DNA of 64,000 nucleotides from Escherichia phage vB_Eco4M-7: sequence record MN176217, one strand, 5' to 3'. Positions 22,588 to 37,679 of the stretch are shown here, piece by piece (position 1 is the stretch's first letter; the number at the start of each line of letters is the position of its first letter). Both the position numbers and the translations under genes were made by a program. A model generated the notes under the pieces. The model made no database searches. It had not been told where the DNA came from and saw nothing but the letters and a program-made list of their open reading frames with translations.

Positions 22588-24006
22588 ATGCGAATGCAAA
22601 CGGCACGCGAAATTGACAAAAATGGATTCTTGACGATTATGGGTTGTCCAATTTCGTCATTTGGCATTTTTGATTATTCTGCTGGTCAAGTTGGTCTTGA
22701 TGGTGATCCGAATCGCATCGTAAAAGTCTATCGCCCTGAGTCAGCGGTGAAAGACCCCGAAGCGATAGATTCATTCAAAAATATCCCTTTCATCGACAAT
22801 CACGAAATGCTTTCTGGATTTGAAGGTGATGAGGATAACACAGCACCCGAAGAGTATGGAGTTGATGGCGTTCTGACTGGCAATGTTTATTATGACAAGC
22901 CATGGATGCGCGGCGACCTTAAAGTGTTTAGCCGTCGTCTGAAGAAGGCCATTGATTCTGGAAAGGTTGACTTGTCTTTGGGCTATGACTGTGAATTCAT
23001 CATACAGTCTGGAGAGTTTGACGGGCAGCCGTATGAAGTGGTGCAGACAACTCTTCGCGGCAACCACATTGCTCTCGTGGACGTTGGTCGAGTACCAGGT
23101 GCACGGGTGCTGGATGGTCGTTGCTTTGACCATCTTTGTTTGACGACTGTAACACCATCCAACGAGGATTTAGACATGCCAAAACCGTTAAAAGGTAAAG
23201 CGCGTGATAATGCTGTTGAACAGCTGAAATCACTGATCCCTGCGCTCGAACAATTTCTGAATGAAGAGAGTACTGAAGCTGCTCATCAGGACGAAGTTGA
23301 AGTGAAAGCAGAAGAGAAGGACTCAACCGAAAATCGTGAAGAAGTAATGGTTGATCCAGAAGTCAAGGCAGAAGCAGAAGAAACCCCAGAAGGTGAAGAG
23401 AAGTTTGAAGTTGAAACTGAATCTAACGCTGGCGGCGAACTTCCGCAATTGATCAGCCAAATCGAAGCACTTATTGCAAAACTGAAAGGTGGCGCGGTAG
23501 GTGATGAAGAAGAAGTTGAAGCCGAAGTCAAAGACGAAGAAGTTGAAGTCAAGGCTGAAGATGTATCACCTTGCGACAAAGCTGAAGATGTGGTTAGCGG
23601 CCTGCAAAACAGCAACGTAAAGGGGGCTTCGGTCGAAAAAGATGACAAACCGACAAAAGCGGCGAAAGCGTCGCCAGGTCCAGCAAAAGGGGAACACTCA
23701 ATGGCATCTGATTCAGCAGTTGCTGCTTTCTACGCTGATTCTGCTCGTAAGAATAGCCTCTACCAGCGCCTGTCTAAAGTTGTTGGTGCCTTTGATCATG
23801 CAACTATGGACTCCAAGTCCGTAGCGAAATATGGCGCTAAAAAGTTAGGCTTGAAGTGCGTTGATGGTGCTGAGTTTGACGTGGTGGATAATTATCTACG
23901 CGGCGTTGAGCACGGTCAAAAACAGCGTGTAGTCGCAAAACAAAAGGCCGCTGCGGATTCTGCAGCAACTGACGAAGCATTTGAAGCTTGGTTGAAAGGG
24001 GAATAA
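22588..24006 (+). CDS. putative prohead scaffolding protein (possibly with N-terminal protease-like domain)
   Basis: 472 aa; long acidic E/K/V-rich central region; position between MuF-like and capsid genes. Confidence 0.45.
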   Translation: MRMQTAREIDKNGFLTIMGCPISSFGIFDYSAGQVGLDGDPNRIVKVYRPESAVKDPEAIDSFKNIPFIDNHEMLSGFEGDEDNTAPEEYGVDGVLTGNVYYDKPWMRGDLKVFSRRLKKAIDSGKVDLSLGYDCEFIIQSGEFDGQPYEVVQTTLRGNHIALVDVGRVPGARVLDGRCFDHLCLTTVTPSNEDLDMPKPLKGKARDNAVEQLKSLIPALEQFLNEESTEAAHQDEVEVKAEEKDSTENREEVMVDPEVKAEAEETPEGEEKFEVETESNAGGELPQLISQIEALIAKLKGGAVGDEEEVEAEVKDEEVEVKAEDVSPCDKAEDVVSGLQNSNVKGASVEKDDKPTKAAKASPGPAKGEHSMASDSAVAAFYADSARKNSLYQRLSKVVGAFDHATMDSKSVAKYGAKKLGLKCVDGAEFDVVDNYLRGVEHGQKQRVVAKQKAAADSAATDEAFEAWLKGE

Positions 24007-24640: not shown

Positions 24641-25780
24641 ATGACTCGCATTAGCCAAACACACTCTCGCCTCCCAGCGAGCAAGGTGCGCCCTTTTGAT
24701 ATGCAATCCGTTACTGATGCGGCTGTTTCCCAGCTTGCTCGTATCGGTATTGTGTTTGATTCCGCGATTGTGCGTGATCAGATTGAGCACTTAAACCGTG
24801 CAGGCGCTTTTCGCGTAGGTGACGCCGCGTTTACTGCGCCGCAGACTACTCCGTCAATCCCGACCCCGTTGCAATTCCTGCAGCAGTGGTTGCCTGGCTT
24901 CGTCAAAATCATGACCGCTGCTCGTAAAATCGACGAACTGGTTGGTATTGATACCGTTGGTCAGTGGGAAGATGCAGAAATCGTTCAGGGTATCGTTGAA
25001 CCAGCTGGCACCGCAGTTGAATATGGTGATTTCACCTCTATTCCTCTGGCAAGCTGGAACGTAAACTTTGAACGTCGTTCTATCGTTCGTGGCGAAATGG
25101 GCATGGCAGTTGGTATGCTGGAAGAAGGCCGCGCGTCTGCGATGCGTCTGAACTCCGCAGAAACCAAGCGCCAGCAGGCTGCTGTATCTCTGGAAATCAT
25201 GCGTAACGCAATCGGCTTCTATGGCTGGTACAACGGGAACAACCGTACATTCGGCTTCCTGAATGATCCAAACCTGCCAGCGGCGATGACTTCCAACACC
25301 ACTTCCGGCTGGGCTACTGCGACCTTCCAACAGGTGACTGCAGACATCCGTTTGATGGTTCGTCAAATTCGTGTGAACTCTCAGGACCAGATTGATCCAG
25401 AGAAGGTTGACATGACTCTGGCACTGCCGACCAACTCTATCGATTGGCTGTCCAACACCACTGACTTCGGTATTTCTGTACGTGACTGGATCACCCAGAC
25501 TTATCCGAAGATGAAGATCAAGTCTGCACCGGAACTCAACGGCGCACTTGGCAGCAACCCGACTTTCTTGAACGTGGCATACCTGTACGCTGATCACATT
25601 GATTCCTCAATCGATGGTTCAAGCGATGATGGTTCCGTATTCAGTCAGCTGGTTCAAACCAAGTTCATGACTCTGGGCGTTGAAAAGCGTGCTAAGAGCT
25701 ACGTCGAAGACTACGCAAACGCAACAGCAGGCGTTCTGCTCAAGCGTCCTTTCGCAGTCGTCCGTATGACTGGTATTTAA
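24641..25780 (+). CDS. major capsid protein
   Basis: 379 aa; gene order; strongly optimised codon usage (CTG, CGT, GGT, GAA). Confidence 0.6.
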
Positions 25781-25805
25781 TTGCTGTGATTACACAGTAA
25801 AACAC

Positions 25806-25835
25806 ATGGGGCGTGGTCGAAAGGCTTCGCCCCAT
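25806..25835 (+). terminator. stem-loop after capsid gene (possible terminator/attenuator)
   Basis: ATGGGGCG / CGCCCCAT 8-bp stem with 14-nt loop; weak U tract. Confidence 0.35.
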
Positions 25836-25895
25836 ATCAATAGACCTCAAGGGCTGTAGGGGCTTATTTGAGGCTTATATAAATAGGACTACAAA

Positions 25896-26360
25896 ATGTC
25901 AAAATACATCGTTTCAACTATGTCTATGTCAGTAAACTACACCTTCTATACGGAAGTGAAAGAAAACCCGAATGCAAAAGCTGGTTCAGGCGCTCTTCCA
26001 AATATTCGCAAACAGATTCTAATCAAGGGCGGCGCTGGTCTTACTTCAGAAACTTCCGGCTTTGGTGAAATGGCAAAAGGCGCTGACGGTGCACCTTTGT
26101 GGACTCCTGAAGGAATCGTCACCGTTGTAAGCGATGCAGATTTTGAGCATCTGAAAGATCACCACGTGTTTAAGCAGCATCTTGAAAAAGGTTTGGTGAA
26201 AGTCGTAAATCACGACATTGTTGGCAATCACAAAGCCGTCGCTAAAGAAGTTCGCAGCATGTCAGACGACCCGTTTGCGCCTATGACGCGCGAAACTGCT
26301 GACAAGCGCATCAAGGTGAAATTGAGCGGCGACCAAGAAGATGATTTATTCCGCGTTTAA
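25896..26360 (+). CDS. hypothetical virion protein
   Basis: ORF track 154 aa. Confidence 0.5.
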   Translation: MSKYIVSTMSMSVNYTFYTEVKENPNAKAGSGALPNIRKQILIKGGAGLTSETSGFGEMAKGADGAPLWTPEGIVTVVSDADFEHLKDHHVFKQHLEKGLVKVVNHDIVGNHKAVAKEVRSMSDDPFAPMTRETADKRIKVKLSGDQEDDLFRV

Positions 26361-26374
26361 ATAAGGTGAATGCC

Positions 26375-26830
26375 ATGTCATTAGATTACGAAAAGTTCAG
26401 AATTAAATTTCCACAGTTTGCTGATCAGGTTAAATTCCCTGACACAACACTTCAAGTATTCTATGACATGGCATGTGAATTTATTGAATCACAAGACAGT
26501 CCTTGTCGTGTTTTAAATGGCAGTAAATTGGAGCTGGCATTGGAATATATGACGGCTCATCTTTTATGCATAGCCGCAGACCAACAAGTGTCTGTGTCTT
26601 CTGGTGACGGAGTTGAACAAGGCGGCTTCGTGACTGGCGCAACAATTGGTGACATCACAGTGAACAAAGTCGCGCCGCCTGCGAGTGATGGCTGGGAATA
26701 CTGGCTATCAAGCACTCCATATGGCATGGCGCTGTGGGCGCTTCTTCAAGCACTGGCCGTTGGCGGCTTGTCATTCGGCGGTCTTCCAGAGCGTGAAGGA
26801 TTCCGTAAAATTGGTGGGGTATTCTGGTGA
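26375..26830 (+). CDS. putative head-tail connector/adaptor protein
   Basis: ATG 26375 after AAGGTG; position downstream of capsid. Confidence 0.35.
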   Translation: MSLDYEKFRIKFPQFADQVKFPDTTLQVFYDMACEFIESQDSPCRVLNGSKLELALEYMTAHLLCIAADQQVSVSSGDGVEQGGFVTGATIGDITVNKVAPPASDGWEYWLSSTPYGMALWALLQALAVGGLSFGGLPEREGFRKIGGVFW

Positions 26831-27213
26831 GGATTCCTGGCGTAAACTTATATCGAGTTGCGACAAAGGTTATCGGTCGCCAACCGATTCAATATTACAT
26901 GTACAAGGGGCGCACCCTTGATAAGATGCGCAACTATGTCACTACATATGAAAAACCAATCACCTTGCTTGCTTCGGTGCAGGCTGTACTTCGAAACCAA
27001 TACGTTGAGCTTGGTTTAGAGCTTCAAAAGAACTATGTTAAAATCTGGGTGGACAAAGACATTGTTGACCTTGACCGCGACGCTTCCGGCGACTATTTTG
27101 TGTTTGGTGGCAAAACGTACAAGATGGAAGATGAAACGACATGGTTTGACCAAGATGGTTGGACGACTTGCCTTGCCGTGGAAGTAAAACAAAGCTTTCC
27201 AGTGTCTACTTGA
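26827..27213 (+). CDS. hypothetical virion protein
   Basis: ORF track 128 aa; ATGA overlap. Confidence 0.45.
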   Translation: MRIPGVNLYRVATKVIGRQPIQYYMYKGRTLDKMRNYVTTYEKPITLLASVQAVLRNQYVELGLELQKNYVKIWVDKDIVDLDRDASGDYFVFGGKTYKMEDETTWFDQDGWTTCLAVEVKQSFPVST

Positions 27214-27214
27214 G

Positions 27215-27796
27215 GTGTATATGACAGATGTCGACCTGATTGACATGCTGGCAACGCGAATTGAAGAAGGTCTGGCGGCGTATAGTCGTGCAGACCTTTC
27301 TGCTGTTCCGGTCCAGAAAAAATACCAACCGACTCAACAGGGCATTCCGACTGGTGATCAGATTTGGTTTAACCTTTTATTCTCAGTCCCATTCGGTTGG
27401 TCAATGAGAAAGAATGAATTTGTCAATGATGAATCTCAATTCGTTAATGGCAAATTTAAAGACATTGAAGATCAGATATACGCAACACGTTTTCAAATTA
27501 GCGGCTTATTTCCAGAAGTGCCTGGCAATCCAGAAAAGCCTACGGCTAATGACGTTTTGACTTATTTAGCAAGATTCATAACCCACAAGGCTAATTTGAG
27601 GGATTGGTTTAAAAGGCATCAAGCTTCAGTATATAGAGTCGACATGAACAACAATGAAAAGTTCTATGACGACATGTCTCAGTTTGAATCGTTTCCTTCT
27701 TTTGATTTGGTAATCCTTCACAGAAACGCAATTTCAATTGACACGCCTGCTGTTGCAAGAGCTGTTAATAACGATTTAGGCGATATTCCGGTGTGA
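27215..27796 (+). CDS. hypothetical virion protein
   Basis: ORF track 193 aa; alternative ATG 27221. Confidence 0.45.
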   Translation: MYMTDVDLIDMLATRIEEGLAAYSRADLSAVPVQKKYQPTQQGIPTGDQIWFNLLFSVPFGWSMRKNEFVNDESQFVNGKFKDIEDQIYATRFQISGLFPEVPGNPEKPTANDVLTYLARFITHKANLRDWFKRHQASVYRVDMNNNEKFYDDMSQFESFPSFDLVILHRNAISIDTPAVARAVNNDLGDIPV

Positions 27797-27797
27797 T

Positions 27798-28283
27798 ATG
27801 ACAAAATCAAAAATGATAGAAAAACAGATAAAGGCGCTTCAATCGATGAAGGGTCTTACTGTTGAGGCAGGATGGTTTGATTCTACCAGATACCCTTCAG
27901 AAACTGGTGGAGAAGGAGTGTTGGTGTCAGAAGTCGCGCGGCTTAATGAATTTGGTCACATAGCCGTTTTGAACTTTGGACAAGGGCCAGTCAGGGTAGA
28001 AGTTCCACCCAGACCATTCATGAGATATGCCTATGAATTATTCGTTAGTGAGCGCAGTGAAATAGAGAATAAAATTGCTAAAAAGATTTTTTCCGGTAAA
28101 ATAGACGCTAGACAGGCATTAGGTCAAATTGGGCTTGCGATGGAAGCAAAGATTGTCGAATCAATTAAAAACGGACCTTGGCAAAGAAACGCCAGATATA
28201 CCGTGCGTGTGAAAGGATTCGACAAACCTTTAATTCACAGCAGCCTTATGTGGCAATCTGTCAACAGCCAAGTCATTAAATAA
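27798..28283 (+). CDS. hypothetical virion protein
   Basis: ORF track 161 aa. Confidence 0.45.
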   Translation: MTKSKMIEKQIKALQSMKGLTVEAGWFDSTRYPSETGGEGVLVSEVARLNEFGHIAVLNFGQGPVRVEVPPRPFMRYAYELFVSERSEIENKIAKKIFSGKIDARQALGQIGLAMEAKIVESIKNGPWQRNARYTVRVKGFDKPLIHSSLMWQSVNSQVIK

Positions 28284-28295
28284 GAGGACACCGAC

Positions 28296-29834
28296 GTGAT
28301 CAGTCAATCTCGTTATATTAAAATTGTATCAGGGGTCGGAGCAGGCGCGGCTGTTGCAGTTCGCAAACTGTCGCTTCGCATCATGACTTCCAATACAGTC
28401 CTGCCGCCTGGCATTGTAGCAGAATTTTCAACTGCTGATGCCGTTGGATCATATTTCGGTTTTTCTTCCGAAGAATACAAGCGTGCAGCATTGTATTTTG
28501 GATTCATCAGCAAGCAAATCAACTCGCCTGATTCAATCAGCTTTTCTCGCGTTGTATCCACGGCGATTCCTGCAATGGTTATCGGCGATACTGAGCCTAA
28601 AACGCTTGCTACTTTTCAGGCATTCACTGGCGCTATCTTAAGCATCACTTATGACGGCACAGACTACCTGACTGACGCCATCAACCTTTCAGCGGCAACA
28701 AGCCTTGCCAACGTAGCGGAACTTTTGGAAACGGCAATCAACACCAAGTTTGCAGCCGAAGGTGGCACGTCGGTGCCTGCACTTGCTGATGCAGAAGTGT
28801 ATTGGAATGCCAACACCCAGCAGTTCACTTTGGAAGCCGCTACGTCGACCGCTGGTGCTGGAAACCTTTCGATTAACGTCACAGGTCAACCGACAGACCC
28901 ATCTCAGGCGCTTGGTTGGACGACTACTGGCACCGTTACGGTTGCTGGCCAGGGTGTAGCAAGTCCGGTAGAAGCCATCGCGGCATCTGTGGAGATTTCC
29001 AACAACTTTGGCTCATTCCTTTTCGCTGGAGCAAACCGAACGCTGGAAGAAATCACAGCCGTTGCAGCTTGGACTCACTCGCAGAACAATATGTACATGT
29101 ATCTGTTCTCGACTGCATTCGCCAACATTGGCTCATACTATACCGCACTGAAAGGTTACTCAGGCGTTGGTATGATGATCCGTGCAACCAACCTTGCGAA
29201 TGATTACATCGACCAGGCACCTGCTGAAATTCTCGCGGCGACAAACTATAATACTGTAAATGCAACTCAAAACTACATGTACTATCAGTTTGACACGCGA
29301 AATGTTACTGTATCGACTGATTCACGCGCAGATACTGCTGATCAAAACCGTGCAAACTATATCGGCGCTACTCAGCAAGCTGGTCAAACGCTCGCATTTT
29401 TCCAGCGTGGCGTTCTGATGGGCGGGTCTACCGCAGCAGTTGACATGAACACTTATGCCAACGAGATGTGGCTTAAATCTGCTATCACTTCTCAGCTGTT
29501 CAGCATGTTCTTGGATCTTGGTCGCGTGCCTGCAAACGAAGAAGGCAAAGCGACTGTCCAAGCAATGATTCAAGTTGCTGTTGACAATGCGAAGGTTAAC
29601 GGCACCATCTCTGTCGGTAAGGCGCTGACGGAAATCCAGAAACAGTACATCACGCAAACTTCCGGTGATAACACTGCTTGGCGGCAGGTTGAGACTATCG
29701 GTTATTGGTTGACTGTCGATTTTGACACTGAAACCACTTCCGATAACCGCACCGAATACTATGCAACATACACGCTAATCTACTCTAAAGATGATGCTGT
29801 GCGTCGCGTTGAAGGTCGTGACGTTCTTATTTAA
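28296..29834 (+). CDS. putative tail sheath protein
   Basis: 512 aa, immediately upstream of tube-like gene; positional inference only. Confidence 0.5.
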   Translation: MISQSRYIKIVSGVGAGAAVAVRKLSLRIMTSNTVLPPGIVAEFSTADAVGSYFGFSSEEYKRAALYFGFISKQINSPDSISFSRVVSTAIPAMVIGDTEPKTLATFQAFTGAILSITYDGTDYLTDAINLSAATSLANVAELLETAINTKFAAEGGTSVPALADAEVYWNANTQQFTLEAATSTAGAGNLSINVTGQPTDPSQALGWTTTGTVTVAGQGVASPVEAIAASVEISNNFGSFLFAGANRTLEEITAVAAWTHSQNNMYMYLFSTAFANIGSYYTALKGYSGVGMMIRATNLANDYIDQAPAEILAATNYNTVNATQNYMYYQFDTRNVTVSTDSRADTADQNRANYIGATQQAGQTLAFFQRGVLMGGSTAAVDMNTYANEMWLKSAITSQLFSMFLDLGRVPANEEGKATVQAMIQVAVDNAKVNGTISVGKALTEIQKQYITQTSGDNTAWRQVETIGYWLTVDFDTETTSDNRTEYYATYTLIYSKDDAVRRVEGRDVLI

Positions 29835-29881
29835 ATAATTGCCGCCGTAACTGGCGGCCATCTCTCTGAGAGGAATCTGTA

Positions 29882-30349
29882 ATGATTAACGTTTCCGGTT
29901 TTGGCGCTTCGATTCGTTTGGTAGCATCAAACACTTTTCCGAATGGTGTGACTCTTTCTGATTTTGCAGATGATGCTGATCCGATTGACGCGCCGGACCT
30001 GCAAATCTCTGAGGCCGCAATGGGCCTTAACGGTGACTTAGTAGTATGGAACCGTGCAAACCCGCTTGAAGTTGGCGTGAACATCATCCCTACTTCTGAA
30101 AGTGATGTCAACTTGGACGTTCTTGCAGCTGCAAACCGCGTAGGCAAGCGTAAGAACTCCGCAAAAGACGTGATCACACTTGTGCTGACTTATCCTTCTG
30201 GAATGGTTATCACGCTAAACAAAGGCACCTTGACAACTGGTTCAGTAATTCCTGGCATCCAGTCTCAAGGTCGTGTGAAAACACGCCAATATCGCTTCAA
30301 GTTTGAGAACGTAGTCAAAACTGGCGTGAGCAACCAAGAGATTTTATAA
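29882..30349 (+). CDS. putative tail tube protein
   Basis: 155 aa after sheath; paralogous to 31300..31797. Confidence 0.5.
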   Translation: MINVSGFGASIRLVASNTFPNGVTLSDFADDADPIDAPDLQISEAAMGLNGDLVVWNRANPLEVGVNIIPTSESDVNLDVLAAANRVGKRKNSAKDVITLVLTYPSGMVITLNKGTLTTGSVIPGIQSQGRVKTRQYRFKFENVVKTGVSNQEIL

Positions 30350-30678
30350 TGTATCAAATACCACTTGACAGCGTACCTAACCAGAATATCAGCTTTAACG
30401 TTGACGGTGCATATTGGCAGTTGCACATTTTTGCCGCTATCGAGCATATGTGTGCCGACGTATATCGCAATGGTGAACTTTTGATTCAAGGGGTGCGCTG
30501 TTTTGATGGTATCCCAATGGTGCCTTATAAGTATCTCATGATTGGGTACGGTAATTTCATTTTCGACAGCGTACCTGATTATGAAAGTTTTAACTCTGGC
30601 GGCTGTAATCTATATTACATGTCAGAATCTGAGTTGGCTGAATTCCAGGCCACTGCTGAAGCGGAGTTTGCAATTTGA
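30349..30678 (+). CDS. hypothetical tail protein
   Basis: ORF track 109 aa. Confidence 0.45.
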   Translation: MYQIPLDSVPNQNISFNVDGAYWQLHIFAAIEHMCADVYRNGELLIQGVRCFDGIPMVPYKYLMIGYGNFIFDSVPDYESFNSGGCNLYYMSESELAEFQATAEAEFAI

Positions 30679-31031
30679 CAACTCTAACCATTGAAGTGAA
30701 CGAAAATAATGACCTTTTTCTACCTGATGGAAGAAACTTAAATATTCTTTCAGGAGAAAAAGCGATGGTGCAAGTAATCAAGGCCGCGCATCAGATGCGA
30801 CTTGGTGAAGACTTGTACGATATAGAAAACGGGGTCGATTATTTGGGGACCGTTTTCAAGTCGCCCGTTGACGAAGACGGTGCGCGAAAGTCGATTGCAG
30901 ATGCTATTCTGAAGAAAGCAGACGTTGCCGGAATCGACTCATTGACTGTCACCATCCAAAACGGTATCCTTGGATTCACTGCAGAAGTGGTGACTATTTA
31001 TGGCGAACGTATAAAGGTGAGTAATCAATAA
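30675..31031 (+). CDS. hypothetical tail protein
   Basis: ORF track 118 aa; TTG start. Confidence 0.4.
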   Translation: MTTLTIEVNENNDLFLPDGRNLNILSGEKAMVQVIKAAHQMRLGEDLYDIENGVDYLGTVFKSPVDEDGARKSIADAILKKADVAGIDSLTVTIQNGILGFTAEVVTIYGERIKVSNQ

Positions 31032-31297
31032 TGGCACAAGTAATTCATTTTGCAAATGGCGTCATGAAATTTGGCGAAAAATTTGAAGACGCATCAGAGC
31101 TGTTTAATAAGAAGGTTGAGCCTGTTACAGAAATCAAAGAGCAGGTCGAAGAAAAGTCCGTTGAACAAAAACTCGATTTTGATTCCATGAGTGTTTCAGA
31201 ATTGAAGTCTTATGCCAAAGAAAATGGCATCGACATCAAGGGTCTTTCTTATAAGGATGAAATTCTTGCTGCAGTTAAATCTGCATCTGCGGAGTAA
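31031..31297 (+). CDS. hypothetical acidic protein
   Basis: ORF track 88 aa. Confidence 0.45.
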   Translation: MAQVIHFANGVMKFGEKFEDASELFNKKVEPVTEIKEQVEEKSVEQKLDFDSMSVSELKSYAKENGIDIKGLSYKDEILAAVKSASAE

Positions 31298-31299
31298 AA

Positions 31300-31797
31300 A
31301 TGGTCAATATTAGTGGATTTGGCACAAGCATTAGAATTGTCGCTCTTCAATCTTTTCCTGTTGGGCTGAATATCAGTTCTTTGTCTGATGACCAGGATTC
31401 GCTAATTATTGAGGAAGTTGAATCAGTAGGTTATCAACTTACTTACGACGGCGGCATTTGCATATACGACAAAGCCGCCGTCGTTCGCGTATCCATTGCG
31501 GTCATTCCAAACACTGAAGATGACATAAATCTTAAGCTTTTATTATCTGCCCGTAAAGGTGGATTCAAGTGGTTGCCAATTCAGGATGTGACATCAATGC
31601 TTATTACATATCCTGACGGTGGAAGGGTGGCATTCTCTAACGGAACAATAATCAGCGGTCCGCTTGGTGACTCCATAGAGCAATCAGGCCGTCGCAAGAC
31701 AAACCGATACACATTTGTGTTTGCCAGCTACGGCGGCGCGCAGAGCACGTCTCAAATTGCCAAGGGCGTGGTGCAGAGCATATTGGGGTCCATTTAA
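31300..31797 (+). CDS. tail tube-like paralog
   Basis: MVNISGFGTSIRIVALQSFP... aligns with 29882 product along its length (SGFG.SIR.VA, ITYP.G, QSGR.KT.Y.F). Confidence 0.5.
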   Translation: MVNISGFGTSIRIVALQSFPVGLNISSLSDDQDSLIIEEVESVGYQLTYDGGICIYDKAAVVRVSIAVIPNTEDDINLKLLLSARKGGFKWLPIQDVTSMLITYPDGGRVAFSNGTIISGPLGDSIEQSGRRKTNRYTFVFASYGGAQSTSQIAKGVVQSILGSI

Positions 31798-32330
31798 TGG
31801 CTATCGATTTACTGTCATATAGTCTATCAAACAGAAGCTTCACGATAAAGAGCTTCAACCTTGGAGAAGTATCCACGCTTGGATGGGCCATAGTCAACGT
31901 CAAAATAAGACTCCAAGCGAAGATATTCAAAAACCAAAGGGAAGACGGCAGCTATATTGTCGATGGCAGAGTAAAGATGCCGCGAATACTCACTGTCACC
32001 GTGATAGCGCAAACGAAAAGTGCATCAGATGCAATAGCTAAAATGCTGCAAAACAGGTCGACTATATACACAATTAATTCCCGTGGTCTAATATTCGAAC
32101 GTATGGTGCTGCAAAATAACAACTTCAGCCAGGACGCTGACAATATAACGTCTCAGCCCATACAATTGGTCTTCCATGAGATATTAACACAGCAGGATGT
32201 GTCTATTCAAACAGCGCAGGCAGGCGACTCAACAGTAATAGAGCGCGGCATTGCATACATAAAAGAAACTTCTGCCAGCGTCACTGGCGTCGCTACAAAG
32301 GTGATGAATGGTATCAAGGGGATGTTCTGA
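31797..32330 (+). CDS. hypothetical tail protein
   Basis: ORF track 177 aa. Confidence 0.45.
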   Translation: MAIDLLSYSLSNRSFTIKSFNLGEVSTLGWAIVNVKIRLQAKIFKNQREDGSYIVDGRVKMPRILTVTVIAQTKSASDAIAKMLQNRSTIYTINSRGLIFERMVLQNNNFSQDADNITSQPIQLVFHEILTQQDVSIQTAQAGDSTVIERGIAYIKETSASVTGVATKVMNGIKGMF

Positions 32331-32890
32331 TGGACTTCGTTTCGATTCTGCTTTCTGGTCAATCTTTGACCATAACGAATGAGTCAACAGGTCTTCCTGT
32401 CTGGACAAGGCTTTCACCTGTTTCTGCAGAAATAACATCCCCAGCAGAAACAACTCAATTCCCTCTTGCCGGTACAGCCATGCAGGTTGTCGAAGTATCA
32501 AGCACGTCATCAGTAAGCAATTTACAGGCGGCAAAGGTTGTAATGCCAGCCCATATGGCGTTAAACGTAATTTGCAATGACCAGTCTACAATTGAAAATA
32601 TCATAAATTCATTTGATGATGACGAAGTCACATTTTCAATAACTTCTCGAAGCATCATTGCCAGTAAAATGTCGATGTCCGACGTTGAAATAACCCAGTC
32701 AGAAGAAAACTTGAATGGAGTCTCAATAGTAATAACTTTCGAGCAAACGTCATTTAGCATTCAAGGAAGCTTCGACCCTAAACAATCTGCAGACGAATCA
32801 TCAAATGGTGTTGCTATTAAAGAACCAGTCAGTTTGACTACAACTGTGAGTTCGTTATATAATAAAATAAAATCAACAGTAGGAATATAA
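32330..32890 (+). CDS. hypothetical tail protein
   Basis: ORF track 186 aa; Ser/Thr-rich. Confidence 0.45.
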   Translation: MDFVSILLSGQSLTITNESTGLPVWTRLSPVSAEITSPAETTQFPLAGTAMQVVEVSSTSSVSNLQAAKVVMPAHMALNVICNDQSTIENIINSFDDDEVTFSITSRSIIASKMSMSDVEITQSEENLNGVSIVITFEQTSFSIQGSFDPKQSADESSNGVAIKEPVSLTTTVSSLYNKIKSTVGI

Positions 32891-32891
32891 A

Positions 32892-33308
32892 ATGAAGATC
32901 ACCAACAAACAAACTGGTCGTACAGTAGAAATTAAAATCAGCAAAATGACTGCGATGGAAGGCTGGAATATTCAACGTCGCTTTGTCGAATTTGCAATGT
33001 CGAAGGACCCTGCGTTTCGTTCAGAGTATACGATGGAAGTGTTGAGCTTCGCAAAAGTCGAGCTTGATGTGGGCCAAGAAATCCCATTAAGTACTGGTGC
33101 ACTAATTGACAACCATCTTGGTGACTGGGAAAACCTTAAAGAAGTCTTCGAAGCAGTCCTCATGGAGAACGGTATAAACCCAGATACTCACGCCGAGCGT
33201 GAAGGCTACTGGGAACAAGCTGGCGGCGAAATGGCTGCAGCATTCATCGGCGAATCGATGCGATTAATCGCGCCATTCCTCAGCGGCGAGACTCCAAACA
33301 AGGGGTAA
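32892..33308 (+). CDS. putative tail assembly chaperone
   Basis: 138 aa directly upstream of tape measure gene. Confidence 0.4.
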   Translation: MKITNKQTGRTVEIKISKMTAMEGWNIQRRFVEFAMSKDPAFRSEYTMEVLSFAKVELDVGQEIPLSTGALIDNHLGDWENLKEVFEAVLMENGINPDTHAEREGYWEQAGGEMAAAFIGESMRLIAPFLSGETPNKG

Positions 33309-33311
33309 ACT

Positions 33312-35492
33312 GTGTCTGACTCATTAGAAAAATTTGTGCTTCAATATACGGTGGACTTGAAAGAGTCCATCAATCGTCTTGAGCAATTGCAAGATAAGGT
33401 TGATCAGACAAACAAAAAGGCAAAATCCGCTGGCAAAGATTTCTCTGGAGCATTCAAAGATGTTTTTGGCGAGCTAAAGCCGCTTACTGGTGAGCTAGGG
33501 TCAATTGACGGAATACTTGCGCGGCTGACATATCGTTTTGCCGCGCTCGTCCCTGTTGTCGCAGGATTGGCCGTCGTCGTCAAATCCATCGTTGATGTTC
33601 GAAAAGAATACGAAGCGCAAAGAAAGCTTGGTTTTGAAGCCGGACTCTCTCCAATGGGTGTCGAACAACTACAACGACAGTTGAATGAAAGTTCAGGGGG
33701 CATCCTTGGCGCACAGGGGTCGCGCGATTTAATCAGCAAAGCTTCTAATTTGGCATTCAACGCATACACCAACCCTGATGTGATGAACAAGGACAACTTG
33801 TTGCTGAACAAGATGGGGACAAGTCCTTTCAACAGTAACGGCGGCATCAAAGACACGAATCAGCTGCTTGATGAAATTGGAACAAAGCTGAGAAGTGTTA
33901 ATGAGCAAACCGCGCGTGCCATTGGTGCTCTGGCAGGATTCACGGCTGATGAAGTCCGCGCCCTTCGTGAGCGCAACCAGTCTGTGAAAGAAAGCACGCG
34001 CATAAGTGACGAAGAAACCGCGAAGCTGCAAAGACAGCAAGCTGCTCTTGAGACTATACGAAATAGTATGGGGCAAATTCAAGAAGATTGGCGGCGTATT
34101 GAACTGGTCATCGGTGAAAACGTTATGCCTGCATTCTCGACGCTTGTCAGCAAAACCGCCGATACAGTCGAAGGATTCCAGATGATGTTCCAAAGAATGT
34201 CTGACGGATGGAGCGAATTTGTCGACAATTTCATTGCTGACTTGAAACATCCGTTCGACAAGCAGGCCGCTGTCAACGAGCGTCACGAGCGTGCCGTTGA
34301 TAGATGGATCACGCAGATGGCAGACGGCGATGTGAAACGCCAGAGGAATCAAGAGCAGAACGCTGCTGAACAACGTTCTGCACAGGCGCTTTTCACTCGT
34401 GATATAAATCTTTTTTCAAGCGCCGTGTCAACTTTTGCTGGCGTGATTGATGAGCGTCAAGCTTGGGCGGCATGGGCAGGTGAAATTGGGCGCAGCGCAG
34501 GGCAATCCGCGATGCCTGGAACGCCTGCATTGAATACTGGCGCGACCATAGGGAATAATCTTGGGTCAGGAAACCCGACAGTGTATGACTCAATATATGA
34601 GGAAGCTTCAAAACGCTATGGCATACCTGTGGCGATGATGAAGGCCGTGACTGAAGTTGAATCTGGATTCAATCCAAATGCTGTGAGCGGAGCAGGCGCG
34701 ACTGGTTTGATGCAAATAATGCCTTCTAACTTCAAGGGTCTTGGAATAACCGATGGCAATGATCCTCGACAAAACATTATGGGCGGCGCTCAACTGTTGA
34801 AAGAGTATTTAAACGCTGCCAACGGCGATTGGAATCTTGCGCTGACGATGTATCACGGTGGCTACGACCGCAGCGGCTGGGGCAAGAATACACGCGCTTA
34901 TCCTGGAAAGGTCATGGCCGCTCTCGACCGACAATCCAATGGTGAGTATGCCACGGCAGCGCCGCAAGGTGCACCAGTTACTCCAGTACTTAGCGGTAGC
35001 GGAGCGGAAGCGCCAAAGGGCAGCTATGCACCAGTACAAGGCCAATCGCGCCAAACGGTGCAATACAGGCAATTGCAAGAAGCCATTGCAGGATACCTGA
35101 ACGTACCAGTTGAGCAGTTGATGCAGGGACAAGTCAACAAAGGTGATATTGACTTTGCTCAAACTTACCTTAAGCTTGGCACGCAAAGGGATTATATTAA
35201 AAACATGCAACTGGCTTCAACTCCAGGTGTAAGACCGAACATTCAAGCCGAAGCGATGAAAAACGCTCGTCTTGCTGCATTCCAGCTTGAAGCATTCCAG
35301 AAATATGGCGGCGACCTTTCCGCGAATAGTCGACCTGGTGGGCGTGATATTACTATGGGTCAGAAAAACGTTGTCATCAACGTCAACGGCGCTCAAGACC
35401 CACGCAGCACGGCATTCGAAACGAAACGGGTGCTTGAACAAGATGATATCAACGACATAAACAACCTTACTGCTACACCTTTGAAGTGGTGA
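33312..35492 (+). CDS. tail tape measure protein with lytic transglycosylase (SLT) domain
   Basis: 726 aa, GTG start; coiled-coil-like body; VTEVESGFNPNAVSGAGATGLMQIMPSNF. Confidence 0.7.
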   Translation: MSDSLEKFVLQYTVDLKESINRLEQLQDKVDQTNKKAKSAGKDFSGAFKDVFGELKPLTGELGSIDGILARLTYRFAALVPVVAGLAVVVKSIVDVRKEYEAQRKLGFEAGLSPMGVEQLQRQLNESSGGILGAQGSRDLISKASNLAFNAYTNPDVMNKDNLLLNKMGTSPFNSNGGIKDTNQLLDEIGTKLRSVNEQTARAIGALAGFTADEVRALRERNQSVKESTRISDEETAKLQRQQAALETIRNSMGQIQEDWRRIELVIGENVMPAFSTLVSKTADTVEGFQMMFQRMSDGWSEFVDNFIADLKHPFDKQAAVNERHERAVDRWITQMADGDVKRQRNQEQNAAEQRSAQALFTRDINLFSSAVSTFAGVIDERQAWAAWAGEIGRSAGQSAMPGTPALNTGATIGNNLGSGNPTVYDSIYEEASKRYGIPVAMMKAVTEVESGFNPNAVSGAGATGLMQIMPSNFKGLGITDGNDPRQNIMGGAQLLKEYLNAANGDWNLALTMYHGGYDRSGWGKNTRAYPGKVMAALDRQSNGEYATAAPQGAPVTPVLSGSGAEAPKGSYAPVQGQSRQTVQYRQLQEAIAGYLNVPVEQLMQGQVNKGDIDFAQTYLKLGTQRDYIKNMQLASTPGVRPNIQAEAMKNARLAAFQLEAFQKYGGDLSANSRPGGRDITMGQKNVVINVNGAQDPRSTAFETKRVLEQDDINDINNLTATPLKW

Positions 35493-35496
35493 TAAT

Positions 35497-36369
35497 TTGA
35501 AAAAGAGAATCCTTAAAGTCACCTTATCTATGCCGGATGGCACAAGCCAAGTGCTTGATGAAGGATTGATGCTCAGATGCCGAATCAAAAAGGCAGCACT
35601 TTCCGTGCAGAATAAGGCCACAATCGAAGTTGCAGGATTGACAGGGTACTTGAGAGAGTACCTGCTTTCCAACTTCACCGCATTCAACAAACGTCTGCGT
35701 GATCAAGGCCAATTGGCGGCGAATTATGTCAACGTAACAATTGAAGCTGGATATAGAGAAGGCAACGTTGTTAGTAGCAACTTAGTCTACAAGGGGCAAG
35801 TCACAACGGTCGAGATAACAGCGCCGCCGCCGAACATCGTCATACGCATCACTTGCTACACCAACCAGATAAACAGGACTAAGTTTATCACTCAAGCTGC
35901 ACCGTCAAACCCAACATTCAAAGAGTTTGTGGAGTGGTCGGCAAAGCAAATGGACATTGATACTGTTATATGCGATACTTCGATTAACAATCAGCGCCTT
36001 GTTAACCCAGGCCGCACAACATATGTTGCAGCCGCCTTGTTGCTTGAGATTCAGAACTATCAAAGGAACTCTATTGCGGCATATATCGATGATGATACGC
36101 TCATCGTCAAGGATAAAGACAAAATTCTGAATCCAGAACAGATAACGGTGATTGAGGAATTTGTCGGAATACCGATGTGGAACGAGTGGGGTGCTGACTT
36201 CACTTGCATGTATAACGCGGATTTGAAGCTTGCCCAAGGTGTGAAATTCAAATCAGTCTTAAACCCAAGCTTGAACGACACCACATTTGTCATCATGCAA
36301 CTTGAATATGATTTAGCAAGTCGTGATGATATATTTACGGTGACGGGCGGCGTTGCACCATCGGCCTAA
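35497..36369 (+). CDS. putative baseplate/distal tail protein
   Basis: ORF track 290 aa downstream of tape measure. Confidence 0.4.
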   Translation: MKKRILKVTLSMPDGTSQVLDEGLMLRCRIKKAALSVQNKATIEVAGLTGYLREYLLSNFTAFNKRLRDQGQLAANYVNVTIEAGYREGNVVSSNLVYKGQVTTVEITAPPPNIVIRITCYTNQINRTKFITQAAPSNPTFKEFVEWSAKQMDIDTVICDTSINNQRLVNPGRTTYVAAALLLEIQNYQRNSIAAYIDDDTLIVKDKDKILNPEQITVIEEFVGIPMWNEWGADFTCMYNADLKLAQGVKFKSVLNPSLNDTTFVIMQLEYDLASRDDIFTVTGGVAPSA

Positions 36370-36371
36370 AT

Positions 36372-36893
36372 ATGAGAAAGAATAAAGTAATTGAGCTGTT
36401 TGGAGTTACTTATGAAATACATCAATTCAGCGCAATAGACGCGTTTGAAATGGTTGATGCGATAAGCATATTAACTCCACTTGAATTATTAAGTGAATGT
36501 TATGTTATTAAATATGACGGAACTAAAGTCAGATTAAACTCTGAGAAGGCCATAAGTGAAGAAGTGAAAAGTGTGCCAAATCACTTGCCGCCCAACCTTG
36601 TATTGAAAGTTCTAATGGAAGCGGTGAAGAAGCACAATTTTGGATTCCTCAGTGATTGGAAAGGCACTAAGATCCCAAATAGATTCTTGGCTGACGTCCC
36701 GACCGTAGAGCCTAATTATCTTGAGCCGATGGTTGCAAGCCTAATAAACAATGGTCTTGCTTCGTTAAAAGAATTGGAAGAATATTATTCATTGCGTGAT
36801 GCATTCGCTATGTTTGATGGACTAATAGCAAAATCACTTAATGAAGCCTACTCAAACGAAGCTGCCATTAAAGAATCAAAGTCAAATCGCTAA
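36372..36893 (+). CDS. hypothetical protein (AT-rich insertion in baseplate cluster)
   Basis: ORF track 173 aa; visibly AT-richer codon usage than flanking genes. Confidence 0.5.
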   Translation: MRKNKVIELFGVTYEIHQFSAIDAFEMVDAISILTPLELLSECYVIKYDGTKVRLNSEKAISEEVKSVPNHLPPNLVLKVLMEAVKKHNFGFLSDWKGTKIPNRFLADVPTVEPNYLEPMVASLINNGLASLKELEEYYSLRDAFAMFDGLIAKSLNEAYSNEAAIKESKSNR

Positions 36894-36903
36894 AATATTG
36901 CTT

Positions 36904-36952
36904 ATAGACTCCTTATAGATTATAATTTGTTGATCAGATCTAAGGAGTCTAT
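36904..36952 (+). promoter_or_regulatory. RBS-sequestering hairpin with embedded TATAAT
   Basis: 12-bp perfect inverted repeat 36904-36915 / 36941-36952 pairing the AAGGAG RBS and ATG 36951; TATAAT at 36919-36924 in the loop. Confidence 0.5.
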
Positions 36953-37679
36953 GATGGCAGAAAAGTTAACCCAACTTACAAGCCCCAACCAAACTGACAA
37001 ATCAAGTATGTTTGCCGCGCTGCAGGGAATGCTGGACCGTGGCAAGTATACCACTGACGGCATGATTCCTGCACAAGTAATATCTTATGACCGCAAACAA
37101 AATTTAGCAGTCATAAAGCCTGTTATTCATTTCGTAAGTCTTGATGATAAACCAGTGGAGCGTCAACCTTTGGTGTCAATTCCTGTATTGGCAATTGGCG
37201 GCGGCGGCTTCGTGATCAACTTTCCTTTGAAAGAGGGCGATTTGGGCTGGATATTCGCTGGCGACCGCGAGTTGTCGACATTCCTTGAAGAATTGAAGCC
37301 GACCGCGCCTACCAATGGCCGCGCGAAAACTTTCGCTGATGGACTGTTCATACCGGATGTATTCCGAAAATACACCATAAGCGGAGAGGATGCAGGCTCA
37401 ATGGTAATTCAGTCACTCAGCGGCGCTGTACGAATCGCATTAAGTGATGACTCGATAAACATAACTGCATCGGCTGGAGTAAATGTGAAAACACCAATAA
37501 CCACTATCGACCAACAATTGATAGTTAATGGAAAGGCAACGTTCAATGGTGGTATAGAAGGGAAAGAAGGAACGACGGCAACGCTTCCGACTGGCACAAC
37601 AATCGGCGGCACAAATGTATCCACTCACGGTCACATAGGTAACGGACCTGGAAACAGAACTGGGGATATGATAGAATGA
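36951..37679 (+). CDS. putative baseplate spike/hub protein
   Basis: ATG 36951 after AAGGAG; in frame with ORF track 36927..37679; Gly/Thr-rich C-terminus. Confidence 0.4.
   Translation: MMAEKLTQLTSPNQTDKSSMFAALQGMLDRGKYTTDGMIPAQVISYDRKQNLAVIKPVIHFVSLDDKPVERQPLVSIPVLAIGGGGFVINFPLKEGDLGWIFAGDRELSTFLEELKPTAPTNGRAKTFADGLFIPDVFRKYTISGEDAGSMVIQSLSGAVRIALSDDSINITASAGVNVKTPITTIDQQLIVNGKATFNGGIEGKEGTTATLPTGTTIGGTNVSTHGHIGNGPGNRTGDMIE

Follow-up and report, generated by a model that had tools for sequence, protein, structure and literature searches.

Why would a single tail module carry two tube-like genes? The question is raised by Escherichia phage vB_Eco4M-7 (sequence record MN176217), of which a stretch of 64,000 nucleotides, hereafter called the window, was analysed. 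A first-pass annotation, made from the letters alone, had noticed in it two paralogous tail-tube-like genes separated by three small open reading frames (ORFs), and had proposed that such a pair could consist of a tube and either a tube initiator or a terminator. We designate as A the product of 29882..30349 (155 amino acids, aa) and as B the product of 31300..31797 (165 aa), both encoded on the + strand. Our analysis indicates that A is very probably the major tail tube, and B an ancient paralog specialised as a single-ring baseplate tube in the tail module of this Wifcevirus myophage. This assignment is directly based on homology to solved chains, orthology, synteny and purifying selection, while the stoichiometry of the ring, its position in the baseplate and its nucleating role are carried over by homology.

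The two ORFs lie on the + strand where the first-pass annotation had placed them, and all the peptide strings that it quoted are found in them. BLASTP (29882..30346 versus 31300..31794) aligned the two products without any gap, with 47 identical residues out of 143 (33%), 61% positives, 100 bits and an E value of 2e-32. The Smith-Waterman score was 251, to be compared with 30.8 +/- 5.1 (maximum 59) for 2000 shuffles, which corresponds to z=43. Paralogy, for which a pairwise alignment had been proposed as a check, was therefore confirmed far above chance level. The two products had been said to align end to end; this holds for residues 1-143 of both, and not for the C-terminal ends, where A has 12 unaligned residues and B has 22. 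Both exceeded the gathering cutoff (27 bits) of PF22764 (E217_Gp32; the PB1-like tail tube family), A being matched over positions 1-143 and B over positions 2-143 of the 144 positions of the model (scores in Table 1). The DNA sequences of the two genes share about 50% identity (257/518), and therefore the duplication is old and does not correspond to a recent repeat. The three small ORFs between them are as had been described: they are on the same strand, encode 109, 118 and 88 aa, and overlap their neighbours or lie at most 2 bases from them.

Two members of this family have been solved in each of two virions of PB1-like Pseudomonas phages, to which the present phage is distantly related, those of E217 (PDB entries 8fuv, 8env and 8eon; PMC10329688) and Pa193 (9b42 and 9b45; PMC11456595), and A and B were compared with their chains. 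A matched over its full length the Pa193 gp33 chain "Tail tube" (9b42_M; 167 bits, E=1.4e-48) and E217 gp32 (8fuv_T; 146 bits, E=4.4e-42), and its matches to the baseplate-tube chains were weaker, at 92 bits for Pa193 gp37 and 91.5 bits for E217 gp36. The reverse was found for B, which scored highest with the Pa193 gp37 chain "Baseplate tube" (9b45_M; 181 bits, E=1.1e-52), followed by E217 gp36 (8env_I; 170.5 bits, E=2.2e-49, a full-length match as well), versus 80 bits with the Pa193 tube gp33 and 63 bits with the E217 tube. For both A and B, the Pa193 proteins were thus the best-scoring solved homologues. A is orthologous to a solved tube and B to a solved ring at the baseplate end (E217 gp36, Pa193 gp37), so that among the suggestions of the first-pass annotation, the pair made of a tube and a tube initiator is the one retained.

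A neighbour-joining tree was built from an alignment of the A and B proteins of Wifcevirus, PB1, Serratia phage MyoSmar, Xanthomonas phage XcP1 and Burkholderia phage Karil-Mokiny-1, to which two single-copy tube proteins were added. A and B formed two separate clades, with 43-60% identity within a clade and 26-39% between clades; A grouped with the tube orthologues and B with the other B proteins. The single-copy tubes, from Bordetella phage vB_BaM-IFTN1 and Burkholderia phage Bm1, grouped with A. By tblastn, each of these two phages has one detectable PF22764-like member of the tube family, and their baseplate tube ring, if any, is past the reach of tblastn. The gene order of IFTN1 is also simpler: sheath, tube, small ORF, tape measure protein. 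When B was used as a tblastn query, 379 phage records were matched, nearly all of them at two places. The two clades also differ in length. All five B proteins (163-167 residues) are extended by about 20 residues at the C-terminus and have there a conserved ...GAQS...Q/S-ILG-like tail, and the five A sequences (149-155 residues) are without this extension.

In DNA sequence, the block from 28296 to 33308 (5 kb) has 100% identity with Escherichia phage vB_Eco4M-7n (PP596836.1, genus Wifcevirus). Another 27 Wifcevirus records match it at 89-99% identity, and about 255 Pseudomonas PB1-like phages show a more distant similarity. Compared with phage Mansfield (89% DNA identity), gene A had 45 synonymous codon differences and 1 non-synonymous, and gene B 42 and 0, which points to strong purifying selection on both.

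Gene order leads to the same assignment. Gene A starts at 29882, directly downstream of the sheath gene, which ends at 29834, and the same layout is found in PB1, MyoSmar, XcP1 and Karil-Mokiny-1. Gene B comes after the sheath initiator gene, from which a variable small ORF separates it, and stands immediately before ripcord-1 and ripcord-2, a position that it also has in PB1 and the three other phage lineages. More generally, the order known in E217 and Pa193 is kept throughout: collar, gateway, sheath, tube, helical bundle, sheath initiator, tube-B, ripcord-1, ripcord-2, tape measure and hub (Table 1). This whole layout is shared by PB1, MyoSmar, XcP1 and Karil-Mokiny-1.

Table 1. Predicted genes of the tail module in the window, with the matches on which each assignment is based.
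Predicted product	Coordinates	Strand	Matches and remarks
Collar protein (E217 gp28-like), neck	26827..27213	+	PF22755 E217_gp28 E=4.4e-46
Gateway protein (E217 gp29-like), capsid-proximal cap/terminator of tube and sheath	27215..27796	+	PF22756 E217_gp29 E=3.2e-38
161-aa ORF between gateway and sheath	27798..28283	+	Without Pfam match
Tail sheath protein, 512 aa, 54.9 kDa	28296..29834	+	PF11863 DUF3383 E=5e-119; phrog_205 tail sheath
A, major tail tube protein, 155 aa, 16.5 kDa	29882..30349	+	PF22764 203.8 bits; PDB matches; tube clade
Baseplate adaptor, "helical bundle" protein, 109 aa	30349..30678	+	PDB 9b45_A E=1.2e-25; 8env_G E=2.5e-25; PF22479 Pam3_gp18 E=8.8e-17
Sheath initiator, 118 aa, TTG start	30675..31031	+	PDB 9b45_G E=6.1e-23; 8env_H E=1.8e-21; phrog_120 baseplate wedge
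88-aa acidic protein, SAP/HeH-like C-terminus	31031..31297	+	Pfam SAP E=8e-6; AlphaFold2 model
B, baseplate tube / tail tube-B, 165 aa, 17.6 kDa	31300..31797	+	PF22764 180.4 bits; PDB matches; B clade
Ripcord-1 (E217 gp37 / Pa193 gp38 homologue)	31797..32330	+	PDB 9b45_S E=1.1e-20; 8eon_A E=2.9e-20; PF22760
Ripcord-2 (E217 gp38 / Pa193 gp39 homologue)	32330..32890	+	PDB 9b45_V E=1.3e-27; PF22760 E=1.8e-71
138-aa ORF directly upstream of tape measure gene	32892..33308	+	phrog_4627 (unknown function)
Tape measure protein with lytic transglycosylase domain	33312..35492	+	PF01464 SLT E=2.8e-24; phrog_2013 lytic tail protein; tape-measure PHROGs
Baseplate hub (E217 gp41 homologue), trimer at cap bottom	35497..36369	+	PF22759 E217_GP41 E=3.4e-118

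The solved virions indicate what the two proteins may do. In E217, the repeating tube consists of 34 hexamers of gp32. A single hexameric ring is formed by gp36, named "tail tube-B", which resembles gp32 (root-mean-square deviation 3.6 A); three gp37/gp38 heterodimers are carried by this ring and hand the symmetry down to the hub gp41, a trimer, and the tip gp43 (PMC10329688). The Pa193 counterpart, gp37, assembles into a homohexameric platform on the same axis as the tube; its C-termini and those of gp38 face outward and are bound by the sheath initiator (PMC11456595). By homology, A is predicted to form stacked hexameric rings inside the contractile sheath, and B one hexameric ring that connects tube and baseplate cap.

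Transposed to vB_Eco4M-7, assembly could proceed as follows. The tip and the trimeric hub (35497..36369) would be at the bottom, and a 3+3 heterohexamer of ripcord-1 and ripcord-2 (31797..32890) would sit on them. B would form its single ring on this heterohexamer, coaxial with the tube, as part of a baseplate cap in which the symmetry rises from 3-fold (tip and hub) to 6-fold (tube). The ring would offer a docking surface for the first ring of A, and its position suggests a role of tube initiator. Further rings of A would stack on B and polymerise up to the gateway protein, the putative terminator by homology. According to the description of Pa193, the C-terminal extension of B may project outward and help to dock the sheath initiator or the adaptors encoded at 30349..31031, and the docked sheath initiator would seed the sheath.

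Published proteomic data bear on the abundance of the two proteins. Consecutive gene products of vB_Eco4M-7 were listed with masses of 16.5, 12.8, 9.8, 17.6 and 19.6 kDa (PMC7048862), and the masses computed for the ORFs of the window are the same, in the same order. The 16.5-kDa protein, which has the predicted mass of A, was detected by 6 peptides with a score of 283, versus 3 peptides and a score of 4.5 for the 17.6-kDa protein, which has the predicted mass of B; in ECML-117, the former was detected and the latter was not (PMC7048862). These signals fit a many-copy component for A and a few-copy component for B. For the published tail length of 107-120 nm (PMC7048862), and with an assumed rise of about 4 nm from ring to ring, the tube would contain roughly 27-30 rings, and about 160-180 copies of A would be predicted per 6 copies of B.

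Several points weigh against the assignment of B as a single-ring baseplate tube. Proteomic scores are non-quantitative, and the samples also held non-structural proteins (PMC7048862). For Wifcevirus, position and copy number are taken over from homologues that share about 52-55% identity. In E217 and Pa193 too, nucleation of the tube by the ring is read from its position, and the two papers disagree on which adaptor binds which C-terminus (PMC10329688, PMC11456595). Lastly, AlphaFold2, run on B with A as the sole alignment partner (two sequences), returned a predicted local distance difference test score (pLDDT) of 29, a model unusable as an independent prediction of the fold.

How do other readings account for the pair? 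The first-pass annotation had raised the option that B is a tail tube terminator, that is, a tube-fold ring capping the capsid-proximal end of the tube at tape-measure length. It is true that terminators and tube proteins of long-tailed phages have a distant common fold. However, the solved orthologues of B are in the baseplate cap and not in the neck, and the gene for B stands amid those of the baseplate, with the sheath initiator on one side and the ripcords on the other. Moreover, the homologue of the E217 gateway protein gp29 has its own gene: PF22756 matches neither A nor B, and matches 27215..27796 instead (E=3e-38). In E217, the last hexamer of the tube is topped by gp29, which is similar to the terminator gpU of lambda (PMC10329688). 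A terminator role for B thus appears extremely unlikely, and this part of the earlier proposal was not upheld. A and B could otherwise be interchangeable or co-polymerising subunits of the major tube, building heteromeric or alternative tubes, as they belong to one Pfam family and are both expressed, peptides of both having been found in vB_Eco4M-7 (PMC7048862). Against this, the repeating tubes of E217 and Pa193 are built of the A orthologue alone, A and B have been kept as separate orthologous lineages in five phage lineages, the C-terminal extension is specific to B, and the proteomic signal of B is much weaker than that of A, with none in ECML-117. Co-polymerisation is therefore judged very improbable.

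A third reading comes from database labels. PF22764 is titled "Tail fiber protein gp32", phrog_2420 is a "tail fiber protein", and many records carry this label, according to which A and B would be tail fibre proteins. The name is a legacy one, though: chain 8fuv_T, from which the label originates, is the E217 tube subunit and is called tail tube protein in the corresponding paper (PMC10329688), the same protein was deposited as "gp33 Tail tube" for Pa193, and the real fibres are encoded elsewhere according to the paper on the BASEL collection (PMC11990801). Being contradicted by the solved structures, a tail-fibre identity of A and B was rejected, and we give it almost no credence. In RefSeq, PHROG and Pfam-derived annotation, the term "tail fiber protein" is applied to A, B and both ripcords, and it is wrong for all of them. 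In PP596836.1, every gene of 28296..33308 is labelled "hypothetical protein".

The arrangement of a major tube and a baseplate tube-B, as we retain it for A and B, is already known: it has been solved by cryo-electron microscopy (cryo-EM) in E217 and Pa193, and recognised for Wifcevirus, a Pbunavirus cryo-EM structure having been used in the BASEL-collection paper for the annotation of this genus's structural genes (PMC11990801). E217 is like the window in gene order from collar to hub, in the three ORFs between the paralogs, in the Pfam family common to gp32 and gp36, and in the B-type C-terminal extension. In Pa193, the matching neighbours are gp34 (helical bundle), gp35 (sheath initiator), and gp38 and gp39 (ripcord-1 and ripcord-2). 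Names vary between these systems, as entry 8env labels gp36 "Ripcord", whereas in Pa193 "ripcord" is kept for the next two genes. The window differs from both by its E. coli host, by a genome of about 46% G+C, and by an identity of about 52-55% to the orthologues of PB1, a close relative of E217. It differs as well by its third intervening ORF, which is unrelated beyond a short N-terminal motif and in the window has a SAP-like domain. For the A/B pair itself, one novel reading remains, namely that the tube-B ring of Wifcevirus could differ from that of E217 in copy number or partners.

In Pakpunavirus P7-1, described in a preprint, two analogous rings, tube-B and tube-C, are present (PMC12697256). 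The principle is the same, with one or two single rings of tube-fold paralogs between the hub and the repeating tube, but P7-1 combines two such rings with a homohexameric ripcord, whereas the PB1-like design has one ring and a 3+3 heterohexamer. The ripcords and the hub are themselves tube-fold derivatives, according to the E217 paper (PMC10329688), which brings the number of tube-fold proteins encoded by the module from two to five. Ripcord-1 and ripcord-2 form a second paralog pair, far more diverged (21% identity over 112 aligned columns, E=2e-4), and both match PF22760.

In T4, gp54 and gp48 are tube initiators at the baseplate end, matching the positional role of B. No T4 chain was found at E<=1 in the PDB sequence searches with A and B, none of which was aimed at gp54/gp48, and the resemblance of B to these proteins is functional and positional only. 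The A/B pair illustrates the reuse of the tube fold by contractile tails, one paralog polymerising while the other is a single adaptor ring between the 6-fold tube and the 3-fold hub and tip. As this principle is already documented by cryo-EM in E217, Pa193, P7-1 and T4, the practical value of the present assignment is to fix database labels, and it has little significance past annotation.

The only loose end of the interval from A to B is its third ORF, the genus-specific 88-aa SAP-like protein (31031..31297). Its full-length relatives are restricted to Wifcevirus, and it evolves fastest in the block, with 19 synonymous and 13 non-synonymous codon differences from Mansfield. The PDB sequence search gave no meaningful match. 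In the AlphaFold2 model, residues 51-87 have a pLDDT above 90 and form a SAP/HeH-like helix-extended-helix, preceded by a weak, short N-terminal beta-hairpin and a disordered linker; Foldseek matched the small domain to the SAP domain of MANF/CDNF and to the N-terminal domain of Rho. BLASTP with the positional counterparts in the four other phage lineages detected no significant similarity past an N-terminal motif of about 10 residues. This (I/V)xxFANGVM-like motif is common to the counterparts in PB1, MyoSmar, XcP1 and Karil-Mokiny-1, and is followed by unrelated acidic or low-complexity tails. The positional counterpart is without a model in the E217 and Pa193 maps. In vB_Eco4M-7, a 9.8-kDa protein at this gene position was detected by 10 peptides (65% coverage), with a score of 2929 that was among the highest (PMC7048862). 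The 88-aa product might then be a genus-specific, abundant virion protein, docking in the baseplate or tail by its N-terminal beta-hairpin and having a SAP/HeH nucleic-acid-binding domain, a proposal that we regard as doubtful.

The other two intervening ORFs have solved homologues. The helical-bundle protein (30349..30678), whose start overlaps the stop of the tube gene (TAATG), corresponds to E217 gp33 and Pa193 gp34. The sheath initiator (30675..31031) corresponds to E217 gp34 and Pa193 gp35, and is annotated as gp25-like in phage Mansfield. In PP596836.1, its gene starts at an internal ATG (position 23639 of that record; 30675..30765 of the window is affected), which gives a product of 88 aa. 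The long, 118-aa form with a TTG start is homologous to Pa193 gp35 from its first residue onwards, and Mansfield and the 12.8-kDa proteomic entry agree with it. In the same record, the start of the hub gene is probably placed too late as well, at 35530 in window coordinates versus a TTG at 35497.

Two further ORFs of the module had no Pfam match. The positional counterpart of 27798..28283 is annotated as "tail completion or Neck1 protein" in PB1 and Karil-Mokiny-1, and the Pa193 structural atlas omits the product at the equivalent position, gp31 (PMC11456595). The 138-aa ORF (32892..33308) also had no meaningful match in the PDB sequence search. From its position, the protein may be a tail assembly chaperone; a downstream frameshift extension is not possible, because the tape measure gene begins 4 bases later.

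Could expression signals explain why A and B differ in dosage? A scan of 25000..37000 for promoters and terminators found them at chance level (23 versus 18.4 +/- 5.0, and 10 versus 11.7 +/- 3.3, respectively), so that these sites give no regulatory account of it. No tRNA gene was found in the window. Sheath and tube genes are separated by 47 bases, among which lies a G+C-rich hairpin with a perfect 6-bp stem, GCCGCC-GTAACT-GGCGGC (29841..29858), called by the terminator scan on the minus strand only, and the hairpin might set or stabilise transcript levels. Downstream of it lies a strong Shine-Dalgarno sequence for the tube gene, GAGAGGA, and in XcP1 a terminator is annotated where the window has this hairpin.

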